A stretch of 64,000 bases of DNA from Podarcis liolepis (lineage: Eukaryota): the NCBI GenBank assembly GCA_965112155.1, contig OZ218100.1; one strand, given 5' to 3'. This document shows positions 1 through 64,000 of the stretch, in pieces. Position 1 is the first letter of the stretch. Every line of letters starts with the position of its first letter. A program made the translations under genes and the position numbers. The notes beneath the pieces are model-generated. The model was not told the origin of the DNA and did not search any database. It saw nothing but the letters and a program-made list of their open reading frames with translations.

Positions 1-110
1 GAATCCCAATGGGACATAATCTGAGATATTACTATACATTTAAATAGAGCCAAATTTAATAGGCTGGAACATAAACACCAAAAACAGTGTAACTCAAATG
101 GGAGCTTCCC

Positions 111-121
111 CAAGATGGCGC
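111..121 (+). promoter_or_regulatory. YY1-like motif (CAAGATGGCGC) at the 5' end of the LINE, probable internal Pol II promoter element
   Basis: AAGATGGCG lies ~10 nt inside the 5' boundary, as is typical of vertebrate LINE internal promoters. Confidence 0.55.
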
Positions 122-675
122 CGAGGTAAGACGCTCTTATCGGAGCTCAAAGAATTTTTTTAACTAAATGCCTTTGTTGCCGGCTCTCCTCCTTCTTTTG
201 GATTTTATTTCCTTTCGCTACTTCGCTGGGCTTTTGAACATCTTATCTTATCCTCCTCGGTGCCGGGACTTAGTGAAGTTAATGAAGTTTTAACGAAGGC
301 TCTCAGACATTCCCTCCCGGGCATTAAGGCACTCCCTCCCAGTTTCTCATTGACTCCTCGTGACAAACTTATCCCAAGGATCTTTAAGGACCTCTAATGG
401 GCTTTTAACCCTAAAAACTATAAATTTATAAAACCACAAATTTCTCCCACCACCTCTAACTTCGTGGACCCCCAAACATCTCGGTTGTTTTAACAAACTG
501 AGAAGAAGGGGGGGGGATACTTCAAAGGAGTGCTCTAATTGGACCCAGTTTTAAACTCCTCGCAGCAGCCCAGCCAGGACTGAATGAGAACTGAATGAGA
601 TTGCGACCTGAGAACTTTAACACTCTATCACTCCGTTTAGAAGTCTGATCTCATTGATTTAAGAAGAATCTAGCA

Positions 676-2316
676 ATGAGAAGAGCCAAAAGACTCAGAT
701 GTTCTGATACAGAAACTGACGCAGAGCCCTCCGGTTTCAAACAGAGTAATCTAGATAATTACCTGCTACCTCAAAAACAGCACATATCTCCTCCCAAAAC
801 CTTCCTCAACTCTTTACATGGAAAGACAGTTGAAGAGATATCCCTAGGAATAAATGAGGACAAGGCTACTACTCCCATAATCGAGGCACAAGTGCTAATT
901 GATAGAAAGGTGGAGCTGCTGGAGGAATGCTGCCTAATGACTGCTCAAACAGTTCAAAAAATCTTTGAGCAATTACAAAACATCTCCAAGAAGCTGGATA
1001 ACCCAGATGAAAGGAGGCAACTCACTCCCTTTTTGCCATCCTTAATAAGCCCTGGAGACAAACAGAACAAATACAAATTTATACCTCTAAACCAACCAAA
1101 AACCAGAGGAAGCCCCCCTCACTCAGTCAACCTGATACTGAGGCCATGTGAGATTGTTCTCCACATTTTTCCATACAGAGGGCCCCTACCTTACTGGGAG
1201 TCATCCTTCTGGGCCAGACACCATCTAAATCTGCTCCTAGGCCTTGAGGGTGGAAGCATCGACCTAAAAGCAGTCAAGAGGCTCACTAACGATGGACATT
1301 CCAAAAAAGTACTACTAAAATTTGGTAGTCATAGAATTCCAACCAAAATCCTAAGGGTAAAGGCTTATTTAGCCCAGAAAGGAATTATTCCGCGTCGACA
1401 CTTTGAAGATATATCACTCAGACCATTGATTGCATCTAAAAGACAGAACAAGATGAATAAGGCCATTCTACCAGAAGCCGACATCTGCCCTACTCCCGTG
1501 GAAGAACCCAGTAGATGGGAGAAACCGCAGCCAGCTACCCGGGAAATCACACAAGAAAAATCCAAGCTCTCAAACCAAGCGACTGTAGCATCAAACAACA
1601 GCCTCGCCCTTGATACAATAGACTGGACAGTCCCAGAAGAAGTAGATCTGCTGAGTAACTTTACCAAGCTACCAGACAAAGAACAAATAAACATACTCAG
1701 TAAATTGACGAAACTACAGGCCAGATTGACCGAAATTCACCAACAAGGGCAACAAAATGCAGTAGAAACAATACACAATCAAACTTTACACTTACCAGCC
1801 CTCTCCCCTAAATGCATAGTCAAAAAGAAAGCCACCAATGGAACTTTCAAATGTATAGATGCAGACCTTCAAATCCAGCCTCCTTTAGAATATGAAATGG
1901 CAAGGAAAAACTCCAGCAATGAGACCACAAATTCCTGGCTGAGATATCAGATACTAGCTCTAAACGAAATAGGTACCCCTTATTTAAGTACTACAAAGGA
2001 CTCTAACATTGCCGAACAAAAGATGACCTCCAACAGACCTGATTCACTGAGCCCAACATCAAATGAGGCCAAAGAAATGGAACTAGAGACTGAAAACAGT
2101 CCTACTGTCCACAACAGTCTACCAACCACAGAAATTTCTCAGGAACAAGGAATAGTTAAGGAAGAAAACCAAGAAAGGGAGGAAATTTTAATTTCCCGCA
2201 CTTTAAAAAAGAATCTAAAAGACCCACCATTATGTTCCCCGCCGAAAGCAGCGACAAATGGCTGTATCTGCACAAGACAAAATCCCTCGCTGGACTCAAT
2301 AACAGAACTAGAATGA
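676..2316 (+). CDS. LINE ORF1 protein (546 aa): coiled-coil-like segments, a putative RRM-like region and a long low-complexity C-terminal half
   Basis: ATG-initiated open frame upstream of ORF2 inside the TSD-bounded element. IDLKAVKRL...KKVLLKFGS...KILRVKAYLAQKGI resembles the pattern of L1-type ORF1 RRM/CTD. Confidence 0.85.
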   Translation: MRRAKRLRCSDTETDAEPSGFKQSNLDNYLLPQKQHISPPKTFLNSLHGKTVEEISLGINEDKATTPIIEAQVLIDRKVELLEECCLMTAQTVQKIFEQLQNISKKLDNPDERRQLTPFLPSLISPGDKQNKYKFIPLNQPKTRGSPPHSVNLILRPCEIVLHIFPYRGPLPYWESSFWARHHLNLLLGLEGGSIDLKAVKRLTNDGHSKKVLLKFGSHRIPTKILRVKAYLAQKGIIPRRHFEDISLRPLIASKRQNKMNKAILPEADICPTPVEEPSRWEKPQPATREITQEKSKLSNQATVASNNSLALDTIDWTVPEEVDLLSNFTKLPDKEQINILSKLTKLQARLTEIHQQGQQNAVETIHNQTLHLPALSPKCIVKKKATNGTFKCIDADLQIQPPLEYEMARKNSSNETTNSWLRYQILALNEIGTPYLSTTKDSNIAEQKMTSNRPDSLSPTSNEAKEMELETENSPTVHNSLPTTEISQEQGIVKEENQEREEILISRTLKKNLKDPPLCSPPKAATNGCICTRQNPSLDSITELE

Positions 2317-5300
2317 CTAAATGCTGTCAACCAGCCATCAACTCAAAAACGGATCCTACGCTTGCTGTCCTGGAATATTGCAGGGTGGGGAAACAAAGAC
2401 GGAGACCCAGACCTAATGAACTTCCTTAAAGATTTTGAATTAATACTTCTACAAGAAACATGGTCAACTAGAGATATTAAAATCAATGGATTCACCTCCT
2501 ATACGAAACCCGCAGTGAAAACAAACACGAAGGGCCGGCCGAAAGCAGGGTTCTGTTGCATGATCAAAGACAACTTAGGGTTTGAAATCAAGCAGCTAGA
2601 AAAATGCTTACCACTTGCACAAGCTCTACTTTTAACCCAAAAAGACGATACTTTGCTACTTGTAAATGTCTATATCCCCCCAACCAAAAACAACAGCAGC
2701 AGTGAAAATTGGTCACAACTAACCTTTTATATAGAAAATTTGACCGATAAATACCCAAATGCCTCACTGATAATAGCAGGTGATTTTAATGCCAGAGTGG
2801 GAACCAACAATGAACAACTATGTAGCAAACTAAATTGGAATACTGATAATGATATCGCACATGCCCTGAAAATAGGACGATTCTCCAGAGATAGGGTTGT
2901 AAACAACGAAGGCTTACGCCTACTTGAATTATGTAACAACTTTAATTTGCAGATTGTGAACGGTTCAACAAAAGGCGATAGAAGCGGGGAGTTTACATAC
3001 TTCTCCCCCCGAGGATGCAGTGTCATCGACTATATTCTTGTCCCTTATAATATTATAAATTCAATCATGGACCTCAAAATTGGAACGCGTACTGAAAGCG
3101 ACCATCAGCCATTATTGTTGTCTATTAACTTAAAGGACGAAACCAAAATAACCAAGTACAATATCATAGAACCTTCTCAATACAAACAAATGACCCAATT
3201 AAAATGGTCCCAGGAAATGAGTGCAGCAGTGGGGCAAAAACTTACAGCCAACCTGAGAAAACAAGTATTATCCAACTTAAAGACCACTAATCCCCACAGT
3301 GATATTCCGAAAATTTATAATGAAATCTTCCAAATGTTCGTAGAGCTTAGTACTCCACCTAAAGTTTGGGTACTTAAACATAGCGCTAGCCCTTGGTTTG
3401 ATGATGAATGTTTCCAACTAAAAAGAAAGCTGCGCCAAACATTTAAAAATAATCGCGCTAAACTAGAGCCCTCTTATCTTGATGAAAAAAGACAATACCA
3501 TTACATTCTGGCCGAAAAGAAACAGAAATATGCAACCCAAAAATGGCTACAATTACTCGACTCAATTCAGAGTAAAAACAACAAAGCGTTCTGGAACCTG
3601 GTGTACGGAGGATTGAAAGCCGAAAACCAACTAACTCTACCACCAATTGCAGAATCCAAATGGTCCCAATACTTCACATCTGTATTTAACAATCTACACA
3701 GTGAACTCAAAGGAAATGAGACCACTAAAAATAAAATCAATAAACTCCAGGAGTGGCCAAGGGTAGAAGAAGAGGAAATTAGAGAGATAGTTAAAAATTT
3801 CAAATCGGGGAAATCTCCTGGGCCAGACGGTCTACCAATAGAATTATTCAAGACCTATATAGATTGGTGGGCAGAACCCTTAGCTCAATTGTTTACTCTC
3901 ATAGATAAATATGGGATCATACCTGAGATATGGTTAAGATCAATAATTATCCCAATCTTTAAAAATGGCGACCCAAAAGAACCAAGGAATTACAGACCAA
4001 TAAGCCTATTATCAGTGATAGGGAAAATCTACGCTAAGCACCTTTTATCTAAACTTCTTACCTGGATGAAAAATCTAAATTTACCAGGGAAAGAACAAAT
4101 AGGTTTCTCCAAAGGTTGCTCTACATTAGACCACTGCCTTATACTTATGCATTTGGTTGAAAAATATAGATCCCAAAGGCAATCTAAGATATATGCTGCT
4201 TTTGTAGACTTTCGTGGTGCATTCGACTCAATTGACCTCCCAAAGCTGTGGAGGAAACTCGCAGAATTAAAAATTGATCAGCGCTTATTGATTCTAATAC
4301 AAAATCTATACTCTTCCAATACCTGTCAAGTCAAACTTAACACCAAAGGTCACCTTTCATCAGACATCCCAAATTCGAAAGGGGTAAAACAAGGGTGTAT
4401 TCTCGCTCCCTTTCTATTTAATTTATTTTTATCAGACTTGCCAGATCACCTCCAAAAAATAGAATCACATGCCCCTAAACTTAATCAGAAACCAGTTCCT
4501 CTCTTATTATACGCAGATGATGCTGTCCTACTATCATTAACGAGCTTGGGTCTGAAACGTCTTATATCTTCTCTGATCCTTTACTGCGAATGTAACAAAC
4601 TCTCTATAAATTATGAGAAGACAAAAATTTTGGTCTTCTCGAATGGTTGGAAATTAGAGAAATGGAAAATAAGAGGGCAAGAAATCCAACAAGTGAAAAT
4701 CTATAGGTATCTGGGAATTTTATTCCAGAGCAATTTAGGGTGGGCAAATCATCGCACAAATGCCATAAAACAGGCAAAGTGTACCTCATCAGCAGTTGCC
4801 CGTTTTTATTATCAGAAAGGTAATCAATTTATTCCTGCGGCCAATCAGATATTTCAAACAAAAGTGCAATCCCAGATATTCTATGGAATCCCGCTATGGG
4901 TCCAAGCATATAACAGTGATTTAAAAAAGATTCACTCCAGCTTTCTGAGACGTATTCTTGGACTCCCAGCTGTGATTAAATATGAAACAATGTGTGCAGA
5001 AATAGGCATACACACAATGGAATATTGGGCATGGTCCACCTCAATAAAGTACTGGTTACGCTGCCATTTTCGCTGCCCTCCATCAAGTCTGCTCGCTGAT
5101 TTGCTCAAAGACTCCTATAAATCAAGATGGTATCAGTACCTCGAAAAAAAGATTGAATCTTTAGGCATCGAGCTGGAGCCCCTGTACAATTCTAATGAGC
5201 AATACATTTTCCATAATTTCCAAACTAGACTAAAGGATGTCGAGAGACAAAATATTATGGCAGCTGTAAACAAAATTTGCTCCCCCATATTCTATGATTT

Positions 5301-5661
5301 AAATATCTTAGATAGCAGAGCCAATTACGTCACTAAATTAATAATCCCAGCCCAACGTAGGGCTTTTATGCTGGCCCGTTTGAATGTTTTTCCCTCAGCA
5401 TTTGTCAGGGGAAGATATCAAAACATTCCTAGAAACAAGAGATTCTGCAGATGTTCTATGAATGTCCCGGACACTGTAGAGCATATTCTCTTTCATTGCC
5501 CATTGTACAGTATCCCACGTCAACGCGTGCTGTCCCCTCTTTTGGGTGGTCTGGAACCCCAGCAAGGTGAATGTGTGGGATTCTGCCTATCCGACGTCGA
5601 CCAAAGGGTAACGGCGGGGGTAGCCGAGTTTTTGGTAGCAGTCCTCCAAGGAGCAGGTTAA
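2317..5661 (+). CDS. LINE ORF2: apurinic-like endonuclease + reverse transcriptase + C-terminal CCHC knuckle (frame open from 2317; no ATG before the first EN motif)
   Basis: APE motifs SWNIAG, LQETW, NVYIPP, GDFNAR, IDYI, SDH. RT motifs YRPISLL, FVDFRGAFD, GVKQGCILAPFLFN, YADD, YLGI. C-terminal CRC...TVEHILFHC. No stops or frameshifts. The ORF-track start at 2362 is TTG; the first in-frame ATG is at 2416. Confidence 0.96.
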   Translation, partial: LNAVNQPSTQKRILRLLSWNIAGWGNKDGDPDLMNFLKDFELILLQETWSTRDIKINGFTSYTKPAVKTNTKGRPKAGFCCMIKDNLGFEIKQLEKCLPLAQALLLTQKDDTLLLVNVYIPPTKNNSSSENWSQLTFYIENLTDKYPNASLIIAGDFNARVGTNNEQLCSKLNWNTDNDIAHALKIGRFSRDRVVNNEGLRLLELCNNFNLQIVNGSTKGDRSGEFTYFSPRGCSVIDYILVPYNIINSIMDLKIGTRTESDHQPLLLSINLKDETKITKYNIIEPSQYKQMTQLKWSQEMSAAVGQKLTANLRKQVLSNLKTTNPHSDIPKIYNEIFQMFVELSTPPKVWVLKHSASPWFDDECFQLKRKLRQTFKNNRAKLEPSYLDEKRQYHYILAEKKQKYATQKWLQLLDSIQSKNNKAFWNLVYGGLKAENQLTLPPIAESKWSQYFTSVFNNLHSELKGNETTKNKINKLQEWPRVEEEEIREIVKNFKSGKSPGPDGLPIELFKTYIDWWAEPLAQLFTLIDKYGIIPEIWLRSIIIPIFKNGDPKEPRNYRPISLLSVIGKIYAKHLLSKLLTWMKNLNLPGKEQIGFSKGCSTLDHCLILMHLVEKYRSQRQSKIYAAFVDFRGAFDSIDLPKLWRKLAELKIDQRLLILIQNLYSSNTCQVKLNTKGHLSSDIPNSKGVKQGCILAPFLFNLFLSDLPDHLQKIESHAPKLNQKPVPLLLYADDAVLLSLTSLGLKRLISSLILYCECNKLSINYEKTKILVFSNGWKLEKWKIRGQEIQQVKIYRYLGILFQSNLGWANHRTNAIKQAKCTSSAVARFYYQKGNQFIPAANQIFQTKVQSQIFYGIPLWVQAYNSDLKKIHSSFLRRILGLPAVIKYETMCAEIGIHTMEYWAWSTSIKYWLRCHFRCPPSSLLADLLKDSYKSRWYQYLEKKIESLGIELEPLYNSNEQYIFHNFQTRLKDVERQNIMAAVNKICSPIFYDLNILDSRANYVTKLIIPAQRRAFMLARLNVFPSAFVRGRYQNIPRNKRFCRCSMNVPDTVEHILFHCPLYSIPRQRVLSPLLGGLEPQQGECVGFCLSDVDQRVTAGVAEFLVAVLQGAG

Positions 5662-6138
5662 CAACGAAAACCACTGATTTTATATGTATATATATATATA
5701 TGTATGTAGCCAACTGCTGCCTTTTATATATATCTCAAAGCTTTTATATGTTATTTCCTCTTTTATGGTTTTATTTGCACAATGCCTAATAAAGGTTTGA
5801 TAAGTAAGTAGTAAGTAACTCAAATGGAAAGCTTGTTTCAAAGTGCAATTCCCTGCTGGAAAAAAATATCCTATATAAAGACGATCAAGCAATATTCTGC
5901 CATCAATATTTAGAATATATTCAAAGGGAGAAGGGACACCCAGAATTATCGTGCAGTATATTTGTTTCTAGAGAAACCTATTCTGCTTATTGAATAATTT
6001 AAATTTTAATATAATACCAAACCTCCCAATTTATTTTGTTTCTTTGTTTCAATCTGCCTCACACACACAAAAACCCACAACAATCCCACTGGACTTCCTC
6101 AGATATCTAGGTGATAATTAGTTTTCATAAACAAGTTG

Positions 6139-6180: not shown

Positions 6181-6182
<2 letters not shown>

Positions 6183-6258
6183 TTTCGTAGATTTTCACGG
6201 GTACAGGAATGCAGGTTTTGGTGTCTTCGGGTGTCTTCCCGTGTAAGAGTTGGGGTGT

Positions 6259-6303
6259 CTAGGCGACGTTTCGACGAGGTCTCACTCGTCATCTTCAGGC
6301 TGG
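6259..6303 (-). ncRNA. Minimal type I hammerhead ribozyme motif (Penelope-associated)
   Basis: Reverse complement reads CUGAAGA-U-GACGAG-ugagac-CUCGUC-GAAAC-GUC. Confidence 0.75.
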
Positions 6304-6384
6304 TGCTTTCGGCTTCTTGTTACTGGAACAGAGCAGGAACTGTTACTGGAACTGCTCTGTTCCAGTAACAAGAAGCCGAAAGCA

Positions 6385-6429
6385 CCAGCCTGAAGATGAC
6401 GAGTGAGACCTCGTCGAAACGTCGCCTAG
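6385..6429 (+). ncRNA. Minimal type I hammerhead ribozyme motif (Penelope-associated)
   Basis: CTGAAGA at 6390-6396; stem II GACGAG/CTCGTC at 6398-6415; GAAAC at 6416-6420; GTC at 6421-6423. Stem III is essentially absent and stem I is weak. Confidence 0.75.
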
Positions 6430-6472
6430 ACACCCCAACTCTTACACGGGAAGACACCCGAAGACACCAAAA

Positions 6473-6474
<2 letters not shown>

Positions 6475-6519
<45 letters not shown>
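6475..6519. repeat. (TA)n microsatellite, right flank of the Penelope palindrome
   Basis: Direct read. Confidence 0.95.
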
Positions 6520-25070: not shown

Positions 25071-26422
25071 TTCTAAAGCCTATCAATTCCATTTCCCATT
25101 TTCTTAATGTAAAAATAAGTATATAAATAATATTTCTGTTTGTTCCACTTTGCTTTCAGTGGTGCCAAATCAAGGGAATTATGGTTGAGGAGGTCCCCAA
25201 CCGGCCTGAGATTGTAACGCTGAAAAATAAAGCACTTTGAGGATAATGATTAACAAAAATGGGTTATCGAACCTATTTATTAATATATTTATCAACTGCT
25301 TCTCTAGCTTAAGTTGTGGCTAATTACATCTTTAGTCATCAGAATAAAAATATCTGTTGCTTGCTTGAATTTCCTGCATGTTTCTAAGGTGGTGTGTATA
25401 ATGCTTACACCTAAATATATGCAGTCAAGGAAGGTGCCATTTTGAATGCGCTTTACATCTCCTTGTAATTTAAACAGTATGGACTTCTTTCACTGTGGGA
25501 GTGGAAATGAAAAGACTGACTCTGGTGGCTTTTTTTTAATATCTTGAAAGAAAGCAGGACAATATAAGGACGGCATTTTGCTCATTATATTTCTATAATG
25601 CATTATTATCATTTGGCATTTAGTTTGTAAATAAAAGTGTTGCAGTTTACATGCTCATTTGTGCATTCTCTGACCAGGCAGTTGCAGGAGTGTAACAGAT
25701 AGTCTTGCTTCCTTTGACAGTATTATTGCTAGGCAGTGTGTGTTTGTTGGGGGAGAGGGTGGGGGGTTTAGTAACACCATTTGGGCAAACGCCCTGTTAC
25801 AACTACTTGATAATCTGCATTTCAGGGACCATAATAGCCTCTTAGACTTACAACCAGAGTGTTTGTAGGTGGCTACGTGTCTGGCCAACATTTGCCAGGT
25901 GTGCCAGCTATCTGAGGATTGGAAACGTTCTTCCCCTTCTCAATAGCAGTGAATGGAAGAAGTGTGTCATAGTTTCAGTTGTTGCATTTCTCTGGGGATA
26001 AAGGTATTGCAAGCTCCTTTCTAACCATTAGCTGCATAAACTACGTGTTATGGGGGTGTTGCTTGACTCACTTCTTATGTGACACCATGCATAGTCACAT
26101 CCTGTACATGAATTGATCACGAAAACACATTTCAATATTAATAACATTGAGGTCACACATCTTGTTGACTAAGGCTGTGTACATATTCTATGCAGCTAGT
26201 CTCAGTATGGAATCATTCATGCTTGTCACCAGCATGCTGCTCTCAATCTAAATATTCTACACTCTGCCACCCACAATGGTGGGTAGGGGCTGCTTGACAT
26301 CTATGTGAAAACTCTGCCCTTGATTGGGCTTCCCCTGCCTTTTTCTCTCTGCACATGCAGCAGGTGAATGATGGAGGAAGTGGTTATTTCAGTCTTGGTA
26401 TACACCAACCTACAATATCATT

Positions 26423-26854
26423 TTCCCAGTAGTGATGTATGGAAGTGAGAGCTGGACCATAAAGAAGGCTGATCTCCTTCTTGATGCTTTTGAATTATGG
26501 TGCTGGAGGACTCTCTTGAGAGTCCCATGGACTGCAAGAAGATCAAACATATCCATTCTGAAGGAAATCAGCCCTGAGTGCTCACTGGAAGGACAGATCC
26601 TGAAGCTGAGGCTCCAATACTTTGGCCACCTCATGAGAAGAGAAGACTCCCTGGAAAAGACCCTGATGCTGGGAAAGATGGAGGGCACAAGGAGAAGGGG
26701 ACGACAGAGGACAAGATGGTTGGACAGTGTTCTCGAAGCTACTAGCATGAGTTTGACCAAACTGTGGGAGGCAGTGAAAGACAGGAGTGTCTGGTGTGCT
26801 CTGGTCCATGGGGTCATGAAGAGTCAGACACGACTAAACGACTAAGCAACAACA
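26423..26854 (+). mobile_element. Bov-B (RTE) LINE 3' fragment
   Basis: MYGSESWTIKKAD..DAFELWCWR.LLRVPWTARRSN.SILKEISPECSLEG; (CAA)n tail; TSD ACAATATCATT at 26412-26422 and 26855-26865. Confidence 0.93.
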
Positions 26855-28037
26855 ACAATATCATTGTCAGGTACATCACCCCATTGTCAGGACTGCCTGC
26901 ATTTTCAAATGGACACATTGTGAGGTAATGTAGAGTCATTCTGCAACGAGCTCCCTACACACCATGAATGGAACCAGTTTCTCAAGAAGCACTTTTGTGA
27001 GTGGATTACACACACACATATATAGTGCACAGTGACTCCACAATAAAACATGTGTGTGCATCTTAAAAGTTATCATGGAGAAGCACAAGTAGATATGGGT
27101 CAGTAGCAGTTGCACGCCTTCCACAACACAACAGTCCATCCCTAAACCATACCTGGATGAGATCTTTTCCGTCATCCAAATCATTTAAGACTTTTGCAGT
27201 GGACAGCTTTGTAAGCTTGAAGGGTGATTTTTAGAGTATTTGACAGAGGACACAAGTACTGATTTGCTTGCCTGATAGCAAAAGACTGAGTTCCAGTATA
27301 GTTCAGTAAGACTACCAAAGAAGCATCATCTTCTTTATGAATAGAGTCTTTGAGAGAGCAGTATAACATTTAGATGTTAGAAATATGAATGAATGAATGA
27401 TCCCTATCTCTTTGGCCTGAGATAGTCTTGATTAGTTTTCTGACAAGTGGAGCAATGTCATGAGGTTAGGGTACATCTCAAAGCCATTTCACAAAAGAAG
27501 CTTGCAAAATCGTTTTTGTTTTGTTTGTTTTAAAAAATGTTTCCTCTGTCTAACTCCAAGACAAAACACATTTTGTAATATGAACTTTAGACTATGCATG
27601 TTTTGTTCTCATAAAAGCAGTATAACAAACCCCTAAGAATGTTCTTATACCATCCAGGCTTCAGGAGTGTTAGCATTAATCAAACACTGCCTTGGGGAGC
27701 ACCAATGGTAAGACACTCAGAGTCCTATTTTTAGTAAAATACAATAGGGCTAAGAATAGATGTTCATAACAGAAAGTACAATTTTAAAATTCATTGTGGA
27801 AGGCTTTCTTCAGCAGTACTCAATTTTCTATAGGAACAATAAGATTTTTAGTGTCTGTTTCAGTACATTTGAGGAGAGGGAGTAAACATTCCTGTACATG
27901 TTTAAAAAAATTCTCAGGGGACTGCATTTAAAGATTTACTGGGGGGGGGGATACTGTGTTTCTAAATTTCTCATAAATGAGATGCCTGTTGGGCAAAAAA
28001 TTCTCATATAATCAGACTGATAGCATGGCTGTAGTGT

Positions 28038-28445
28038 TCCTCCTCCTCCTCCTCCTCCTCCTCCTCCTCCTCCTCCTCCTCCTCCTTCTTCTTCTTCTTC
28101 TTTGGCAATCACTTGTAGCCGAGTAAGATTGTCTTCCATAAACATAGTCCATAAGTGACTATGGAAGCCAATTCTGGATCCACACATCCTTCCACAGTGG
28201 GGACATAGGTTTCCAGGTGGGAGTTTATCATGATGAGGGTTTGTCAAGTGTGCCTTCCTCTTAGTGTGTTTCTCCCTTTCGTCCTGAGTTTGAGTGTCTT
28301 TGAAACCCATGACACCTTTGGTAAAGGCTGTTCTCCAGTTGAAACGCTCACAGGTCACTGTTTCCCAGTTGTTGGTTTTTATACTACATTTTTTAAAATT
28401 TGCCTTGGGACAGTCTTTGAACCTCTTTGTTGACCACCAGCATTA
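28038..28445 (-). mobile_element. RTE-clade LINE 3' fragment with a C2H2-like finger and a (GAA)n(GGA)n tail
   Basis: CPHCGRMCGSRIGFHSH on the minus strand; trinucleotide tail at 28038-28101. Confidence 0.8.
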
Positions 28446-62482: not shown

Positions 62483-63710
62483 CTAAAGCTTTCGTGTCTT
62501 GACCTCTTGAGCTTGTGAAGAGTTTTTCTGAGAAGATGGCTGTACTGCACTTAGTTGTGCTCTGGCTTGGCTTCGTGTATAGGGGCGAGCTGTGGTTTTG
62601 TGCCCTGTGCCAGCCAGATCTGTGTAGGGATTGCAGGGGGGTGCAGCATCCGGAGGTGCCACTATGGTTTGGCTACTGGATGGTGTCTGTAATTTATCTG
62701 TGGAGAGGGTCTGGGTTTGGGTCTGGTGTGGTTGATTGGTGATGGCGTTCTGTGTGCCTCTGGTTCTGGTGTCGGTTTTTGTGGGGAGGGCTAATTTCCA
62801 GATGTCTGGCAGGCGGGACGTGTCGTCACGCTTGTTCATGTTGTGAGGGTGTTTCTCTATCTCGATGGCTTCCATGATTATTCTCTTGTGGTGATGTTCC
62901 ATGTTAAAGAGCAATTTGGAATCTGCAAAATTAATTTCGTGTCCTGTTTCTTTCATGTGTTGGAAAAGAGAGGAAGTTTTTTCTTCTTTTTTGACGGCAT
63001 TCTTGTGTTCTGCGATACGTGCATTTATTCGTCTGTTTGTTTGTCCAATGTACGTGGCTGGGCAGACTTTGCAGGGTATTTCATAGACCCCTTGGTTTTC
63101 CAACTGGATTTTATCTTTGGGGTTTCTGAGGATATTGGCTATTTTTTGGTTGGTGCAAAAGGCTGTTTTGATATTGTGTTTATGGAGGATTTTGCTAATT
63201 TTATCTGTAGTGCCCTTGATATAAGGAAGGAGGGCCATGCCATTGTTTTCTTCTGTGTCTTGGTTTTTGGGGGGTGTTTCTTTTTGGATTAGCTTCGTAA
63301 CCCTGTTTTGCTGGTATCCATTGGCGATTAACACATTTGAGAGATTCTGTAACTCAGTTGTCAAGTGGTCTTTGTCAGCCAGGCGTTTGGTTCTGGAGAT
63401 GAGAGTCTTGGCTACGGAGTTTATTTGTGCAGGGTGGTGGTGTGATTGTGCATGTAAGTAGCGGTTGGTGTGTGTTTTTTTCCGGTAGATAGTGTGTCCT
63501 AGGGAGCCATCAGGTTTTTTGTAGATTAGGACGTCAAGGAAGGGAAGTTGGTTGTTGGCTTCTATTTCCATAGTGAATTGTATTTTGGGGTGTAGGCTGT
63601 TGAGATGTGTGAGGAAGCTATCTAGTTTTTCTTTCCCGTGTGGCCAAATTACAAAGGTGTCGTCAACATATCTGAGCCAAAGTTTGAGTTTGTGTTCTGA
63701 CTTGTCTAAA
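62483..63710 (-). CDS. Penelope RT (from just before YVDD) + GIY-YIG endonuclease, N-terminally truncated
   Basis: WLRYVDDTFVIW, IQFTMEIE...LPFLDVLI, YRKKTHTNRYL...SHHH, LPYIKG, GVYEIPCKVCPATYIGQTNR.I..RI.EHK, EAIEI. Frame uninterrupted. Confidence 0.93.
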
Positions 63711-64000
63711 GAAAACATTGGACAAACAAACAGACGAATAAATGCACGTATCGCAGAACACAAGAATGCCGTCAAAAAAGAAGAAAAAACTTCCTCTCTT
63801 TTCCAACACATGAAAGAAACAGGACACGAAATTAATTTTGCAGATTCCAAATTGCTCTTTAACATGGAACATCACCACAAGAGAATAATCATGGAAGCCA
63901 TCGAGATAGAGAAACACCCTCACAACATGAACAAGCGTGACGACACGTCCCGCCTGCCAGACATCTGGAAATTAGCCCTCCCCACAAAAACCGACACCAG

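Follow-up and report, generated by a model that had tools for sequence, protein, structure and literature searches.

Probable stop-codon readthrough between the in-frame ORF1 and ORF2 of a young lizard LINE family and its relatives

The 64,000-nucleotide stretch of Podarcis liolepis DNA analysed here (contig OZ218100.1, hereafter the window) carries a long interspersed nuclear element (LINE) whose two open reading frames (ORFs), ORF1 and ORF2, lie in one frame and are separated by a single UGA stop codon followed by CUA. Judging from comparative sequence evidence, it is likely that the endonuclease-reverse transcriptase (EN-RT) encoded by ORF2 is made by programmed readthrough of this stop, as a minority 1661-aa fusion of the ORF1 and ORF2 proteins (ORF1p and ORF2p). 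With less assurance, we lean towards a broader conclusion, namely that in a broad LINE lineage whose hosts range from lizards to invertebrates the reverse transcriptase (RT) is made only as an uncleaved fusion, that this lineage has swapped freely between UGA-CUA/CGG, UGA-CAR-YYA, UAG-G and -1 U_UUU_UUA signals, and that Gag-Pol-style recoding would then be a main mode of ORF2 expression in LINEs rather than an exception.

One UGA codon joins ORF1 and ORF2

ORF1 (546 aa; 676-2316, plus strand, as are all element features below) opens at ATG 676 and ends GAA TGA, with the stop at 2314-2316; the same frame then stays open for 1114 codons (2317-5661), beginning CTA AAT GCT, and the readthrough product would be 1661 aa long. 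The shared frame across one UGA-CUA, its coordinates and the fusion length had been put forward in a first-pass annotation of this DNA, and all are borne out. The beginning of the ORF2 frame (2317-2415), which comprises a linker and the SWNIAGW endonuclease motif, is devoid of AUG: as also described at that stage, the first in-frame ATG lies at 2416 (codon 34), past SWN (W at codon 19) and ahead of LQETW (codon 45), while the ATG overlapping the stop, at 2313, opens a different frame that closes at 2429. A further ATG at 2321 is likewise out of frame, ending at 2416. The Asn of SWN is, we presume from work on the L1 endonuclease, an active-site residue. Stop-start coupling of the SART1 type does not fit this arrangement, given that ATG 2313 is out of frame and that most related families have no overlapping ATG at all.

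A DNA search returned 40 matches at 96-100% identity, with 30 loci 99.2-100% identical to the window, and a pattern search in which the stop codon was left free recovered 54 copies from the same genome, every one of them with TGA at the junction. ORF2 is intact in most copies and the full 1114-codon frame is kept in many; given this and the 99.2-100% identity, we conclude that the family multiplied with the TGA junction in place. Logan contigs of two other organism labels also bridge the junction, the stop being unchanged in both; record X14 spans 2283-2601 with no other letters, and record X15 spans 2285-2558 with one difference, at 2436. The concern that the TGA might be a nonsense mutation private to one copy can be set aside, since a sense codon occurs at this position in 0 of 54 copies and a full ORF1-ORF2 fusion is absent from the best 150 of 182 ORF1 homologue clusters, the longest of which is 751 aa. 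A search for longer proteins, which bears only weakly on the point, likewise found no single-ORF relative. One protein, P0219, was considered as a natural fusion and rejected: it joins ORF1 to an internal piece of the endonuclease, and looks like a spliced gene model or a deletion.

UGA-C recurs across divergent families of the same genome

Protein and pattern searches of the genome yielded 100 long loci, 82 of which contain the endonuclease motif and fall into 29 clusters. From these, 21 representatives with an in-frame stop were retained (one cluster being split in two and one degraded locus added), including 17 families with at least 150 open in-frame codons upstream in some copy; the other four are degraded lineages. 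Clusters with broken or foreign upstream sequence (L154, L181, L183 and L186) were left out, L155 and L175 were merged with family N, and L169/L184 with family R. For family C, copies other than L073 have upstream frames of 163-451 codons; the 980 codons seen in L073 include an unrelated L1-like fragment that inflates the count.

Across this set, the in-frame stop is invariably TGA (17/17 families, 21/21 representatives) and the +4 base is C in 13 of the 17 families (17/21 representatives). Where +4 is C, the codon after the stop is CTA, CAA, CAG, CAT, CTG or CCA in the 17-family set, with CTT added among the 21 representatives; because these codons encode L, Q, H or P, what is kept is the nucleotide rather than a start codon or a residue. 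UGA-CUA accounts for 6/21 representatives and UGA-CAR-YYA for 3/21, each a readthrough signal already described in the literature (PMC13517186, PMC4132726). The proposal that TGACTA itself is a conserved signal therefore holds in part: UGA-C is kept, but TGACTA is only one of several hexamers. As a control, the terminal ORF2 stops of nine intact families comprise five TAA and four TGA, without a single TGA-C. An enrichment of A at position -2 (15/21) was not counted as a readthrough signal, because the motif that ends ORF1 favours D/E/N codons.

These families are far apart, with endonucleases about 38-42% identical and synonymous sites near saturation (proportion of synonymous differences, pS, 0.52-0.92), and their ORF1s are homologous to one another. 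The first in-frame Met of ORF2 is found as late as codon 241 (family B), 238 (K), 205 (J), 150 (O) and 98 (E), and the sequence ahead of it is under purifying selection, the ratio of nonsynonymous to synonymous change (dN/dS) being at most 0.14 in 9/9 family pairs. Independent initiation of ORF2 at a non-AUG codon had been named as a check on the readthrough proposal, and here families E and K are informative: from the stop up to the endonuclease motif, they lack both ATG and near-cognate codons.

One locus stands somewhat apart. L174:1975-4023 looks, from its sequence, like a recombinant: its ORF2 groups with family O and its ORF1 resembles families M/R, its stop (TGA-AAG) is 46 codons further upstream, there is no Met ahead of the endonuclease, and a named Podarcis lilfordi protein (P0087) matches the end of its ORF1. 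An open frame in its flank (L174:2-929) resembles what we take to be a retroviral envelope transmembrane fragment.

Two sister families replace the stop with a slippery overlap

In families F and G (loci L065-L071, L101, L102, L116 and L128), ORF1 overlaps ORF2 in the -1 frame, and no Met precedes the endonuclease. In both, U_UUU_UUA lies in the ORF1 frame, 77 nt ahead of the WN motif and within the conserved ORF1 end motif; this heptamer has the X_XXY_YYZ form of -1 programmed frameshift sites and is the shift site of human immunodeficiency virus 1 (HIV-1). The run of seven T (U7A) is kept in 28 of 29 F copies, and copy L067 has eight T, which brings the ORF1 tail in frame with ORF2. Trees place F and G among the TGA families, and a degraded third lineage (L151, L170 and L179), left out of the TGA counts, resembles the slippery type. 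A constant frame relationship among intact relatives is thus observed within the TGA families but not across all relatives, as it differs in two intact families and one degraded lineage. We did not count the -1 families as a refutation, because, with a slippery heptamer in a -1 overlap, the same fusion can be reached by a different path.

Single in-frame stops in distant relatives

Among 80 metagenome loci examined, three close matches have a long ORF1 in frame across one stop, which reads TGA-CTA in L191 and L244 and TGA-CGG in L192. The RT tree places L191 and L192 with a springtail protein. Most of the 34 rows examined in this set belong to other LINE clades without this arrangement; in L224 there is an in-frame TGA-CAA, but it lies far upstream and Met codons are present. 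The UGACUA/UGACGG hexamer of type II readthrough sites is thus found in the window (2314-2319), in 6/21 representatives and in L191, L244 and L192, the types following PMC13517186.

A second set of 91 loci, from genome and viral collections, gave 42 with an endonuclease start, 29 of which showed an upstream ORF (the 13 without one were not counted). ORF1 is followed by a single in-frame TAG in 24 of these 29 contigs (among L271-L325), which are relatives of invertebrate type, with G at +4 in 19/24. The TAG-G relatives share a conserved G-rich box (+10 to +15) that recalls type III readthrough, and 8/24 TAG relatives match type III hexamers. The remaining five contigs include four with a spacer and ATG and one with a -1 overlap. 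Most TAG-relative contigs lie in bins of bacterial symbionts of molluscs, and would represent host DNA. An AUG near the ORF2 start is present in 3/27 single-stop elements vs 4/5 elements of other layouts (Fisher p 0.004, uncorrected for relatedness). Scans of viral contigs gave nothing useful.

Predicted features of ORF1p and a proposed mechanism

ORF1 has no Pfam match. Its predicted model contains a long N-terminal helix (aa 68-119), which is likely a coiled coil, a fold similar to the RNA recognition motif (RRM; aa 153-245) and two helices (aa 320-367), followed by a low-confidence tail that is likely disordered. Foldseek matches of this model are mostly RRMs, including the human L1 ORF1p trimer (2ykp), and all are weak (E 1e-3 to 1e-2). 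The named members of the 182 homologue clusters come from Zootoca, Phrynocephalus, Podarcis and Rhineura. In 27 of the 150 best homologues (among P0084-P0204), a motif NG[CS]...D/E closes ORF1 at the stop, after a long variable tail; its counterpart in the window (19 aa, 2257-2313) ends at the stop as well, and could be a binding motif or have an effect on termination.

We propose that most ribosomes would stop at the UGA and release ORF1p, while a few percent would insert an amino acid and continue to give ORF1p-X-EN-RT. Since no 3' structure was found, sequence context would be the main driver of readthrough, and since no protease domain was found in the element, the fusion would not be cut apart. 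The N-terminal helix of its ORF1p part would let it multimerise with free ORF1p, and the disordered tail of ORF1 would tether the EN-RT to the element's own ribonucleoprotein, a tether that may set both the ORF1p:ORF2p ratio and cis preference.

Weighing readthrough against other explanations

Several observations weigh against readthrough, or reduce the evidence for it. The +4 base is A or T in 4/17 families (N, M, O2 and R), families H and C have a Met no more than five codons away from the WN motif, and L192 has one just before its endonuclease motif. The families are related, such that family counts are not independent, and 17/24 TAG elements come from one assembly. Folding revealed no stable structure 3' of the window stop (z +1.0 for +4..+103 and +1.4 for +4..+153) and no 3' fold common to the families, only 2/21 representatives falling below z -2.5 in a 100-nt window; the pseudoknot candidates of families F and G are weak (z about 0), with a possible H-type pseudoknot in G 9 nt past the slippery site. 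RNA depth at the junction is about two reads or fewer in two raw RNA runs (0-3 around it). Finally, human L1 ORF2 is reported to be translated by AUG-independent initiation (PMC5009743, PMC5972666), and for this reason a missing AUG alone is no proof of a fusion.

Folding of the 24 TAG relatives as single sequences also gave no significant 3' fold, and the window family showed neither a downstream stimulatory stem-loop nor a long-range complement of at least 10 nt. Such a stem-loop is present at type II sites of several alphaviruses. UGA-CUA alone gives 1.5% readthrough in human cells, and UGA-CARYYA about 15% in the OPRL1 context (PMC4132726). As a separate observation on the RNA data, most reads of the two runs derive from a 3' fragment that begins near 4557. 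Run X24 covers window positions 4557-5670 on a single strand at a depth of 225-400, the 5' end at 4557 being loose, a pattern that a truncated copy within some other transcript would produce; the remainder of the element is barely covered.

The best-surviving alternative is that ribosomes terminate and then reinitiate at a non-AUG codon to make a free ORF2p, the shared frame being incidental. This has precedent in L1 and SART1 (PMC5972666, PMC5009743), the window offers in-frame near-cognate codons ahead of SWN (ATC 2353, TTG 2362 and CTG 2365), and families M and R, which lack the +4 C and whose long linker contains an in-frame ATG, may, from their sequences, reinitiate. However, reinitiation requires no shared frame, UGA or +4 C, which are nonetheless kept in 17/17, 17/17 and 13/17 families, respectively. 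Near-cognate codons are missing from the linkers of E and K and differ in position among other families, and a start at the TTG or CTG of the window would be expected to cut into the first endonuclease strand. The change of sister families to a slippery -1 overlap was also counted against reinitiation. Overall, a fusion made by recoding is favoured because the shared frame, UGA/UAG, +4 base, absent start codon and slippery alternative are all predicted by recoding and unneeded for reinitiation, which we therefore regard as unlikely for the family as a whole.

Removal or change of the UGA at the RNA level, through A-to-I editing to a Trp codon, splicing or a short ORF2-only transcript, appears very improbable. 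The RNA reads over the junction are too few to bear on editing or splicing, and they contain no joints or molecule starts near the stop, at low power. In the window family the stop lies outside any stable duplex (fold of -63..+60). Edited or spliced RNA would moreover be reverse-transcribed into copies without TGA, whereas 54/54 have it (spliced copies would escape the pattern), and editing would explain neither the +4 C nor the slippery sister families.

Decoding of the UGA as selenocysteine, or a 2A-type StopGo at the junction, is largely refuted and retains next to no probability: all in-frame stops in the families of this genome are indeed UGA, and 2A peptides are known from some non-LTR (long terminal repeat) elements (PMC5972666), but eight family loci, one of them a family-A copy, gave no match to a selenocysteine insertion sequence (SECIS) or any other relevant Rfam entry, the NPGP motif of 2A is absent from 82/82 junction translations, and distant relatives use UAG. 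It is equally hard to credit that the family is non-autonomous, with one long ORF inactivated by the stop and copies moved by another element, as nothing was found in favour of this, while ORF2 is intact in most copies and constrained, the junction recurs in 17 families, and no single-ORF relative is seen among the best 150 ORF1 homologues.

The translation of ORF2 in LINEs has been a question for many years, and the studied cases, L1 and SART1, reinitiate and make free ORF2p. If readthrough is confirmed, ORF2p would be covalently tethered to ORF1p in these elements, which would explain stoichiometry and cis preference; ORF2 start annotation would change, since Met-based calls lose up to 240 endonuclease residues; and many natural readthrough contexts would be added for recoding studies. 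Dozens of intact, nearly identical copies in a young vertebrate family, together with its leaky-stop and slippery sisters, represent a directly testable set.

Architecture of the element and other features of the window

The element spans about 102-5814 and is flanked by 13-bp target-site duplications (89-101 and 5815-5827), the identical 13-mer occurring at 89 and 5815 only. Its 5' untranslated region (UTR; 102-675) opens with a CAAGATGGCG box, which we take to be YY1-like, and contains six upstream ATGs. Within ORF2 lie an endonuclease domain of the apurinic/apyrimidinic endonuclease (APE) type (2365-3114; PF03372 at aa 17-243 and PF14529 at aa 114-266), a reverse transcriptase domain (3973-4719; PF00078 at aa 553-801, E 2e-33) and, as read off a motif in the translation, what is presumably a C-terminal CCHC-type zinc knuckle (5446-5499). 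The nearest solved protein to ORF2 in a comparison with the PDB is human L1 ORF2p. The 3' UTR (5662-5814) holds AATAAA at 5788-5793 and ends in a short (TAAG)n tail. With APE endonuclease and RT domains both in ORF2, a 13-bp target-site duplication, a TAAG tail and many copies that begin inside ORF1 (5'-truncated), this is a young, multi-copy APE-type LINE.

Elsewhere in the window, positions 6181-6476 hold a long inverted repeat with (TA)n on its flanks, and positions 62483-63998 a minus-strand frame in which RT-end and GIY-YIG-like motifs occur; both are suggestive of what we assume to be Penelope-like elements. Fragments at 26372-26845 and 27936-28442 are like LINE 3' ends, presumably of the RTE/BovB type.

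Clade assignment and comparison with known systems

RT trees recover the family as a 100/99 clade, apart from rows which, from their motifs, we take to be RTE-like, L2/CR1-like and L1-like, the deep nodes being unresolved. It probably belongs to the RTEX (RTE-X) clade, a label that rests on features we assume to be typical of that clade. Those present here are two ORFs, APE and RT domains with a C-terminal CCHC knuckle, a short tandem-repeat tail and a target duplication; as a difference, ORF1 has an RRM-like fold and no esterase. RTEX is listed for the anole lizard (PMC7561263), and the substantial ORF1 distinguishes the element from RTE (PMC3905857).

Like mammalian LINE-1 and SART1, the element has a bicistronic LINE RNA, an RRM-type ORF1p and an EN-RT ORF2p. 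In both of those systems a separate ORF2p is made by reinitiation, L1 having a 63-nt spacer and its own AUG, and SART1 a stop-start overlap (PMC5972666); unlike in L1, neither a spacer nor an in-frame AUG is found here at the ORF2 start. Families F and G are in turn comparable to TRE5-A and TRE3-A of Dictyostelium, APE-type non-LTR elements whose ORF2 is said to need a -1 frameshift (PMC5911963). These differ in belonging to another clade and in targeting tRNA genes, and the passage on them mentions no readthrough sister families.

The closest LINE precedent comes from Group 3 of the Paramecium germline non-LTR elements, whose consensus sequences led to the proposal that the ORF1 stop is read through (PMC5405496). 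Hence, while comparison supports the readthrough reading of the first-pass annotation, it has no priority for LINEs in general. Group 3 elements are also APE-type LINEs with ORF1 and ORF2 in one frame, and their sister groups use frameshifting (+1) or reinitiation, where the sister families here use -1. Group 3 is, however, described as a ciliate-specific clade, whereas the present case involves a vertebrate host, the standard code, 17 families and hexamers matching viral signals. The matches listed in our literature search included no account of ORF1-ORF2 readthrough in a vertebrate or RTEX-like LINE, although subscription papers, supplements or Repbase may hold one.

For those viral signals, the Gag-Pol junction of Moloney murine leukaemia virus (MoMLV), UAG-GGA, is classed as type III and the alphavirus nsP3/nsP4 junction, UGA-CUA/CGG, as type II (PMC13517186). 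The window hexamer UGA-CUA is that of Sindbis virus (SINV) and O'nyong-nyong virus (ONNV), and the UGA-CGG of L192 is also type II. In contrast to viral readthrough, neither a stimulatory pseudoknot or stem-loop nor a protease was found in this non-LTR element. What it would share with gammaretroviral and alphavirus readthrough is the outcome, in which one leaky stop codon yields an abundant upstream protein together with a minority polymerase fusion.

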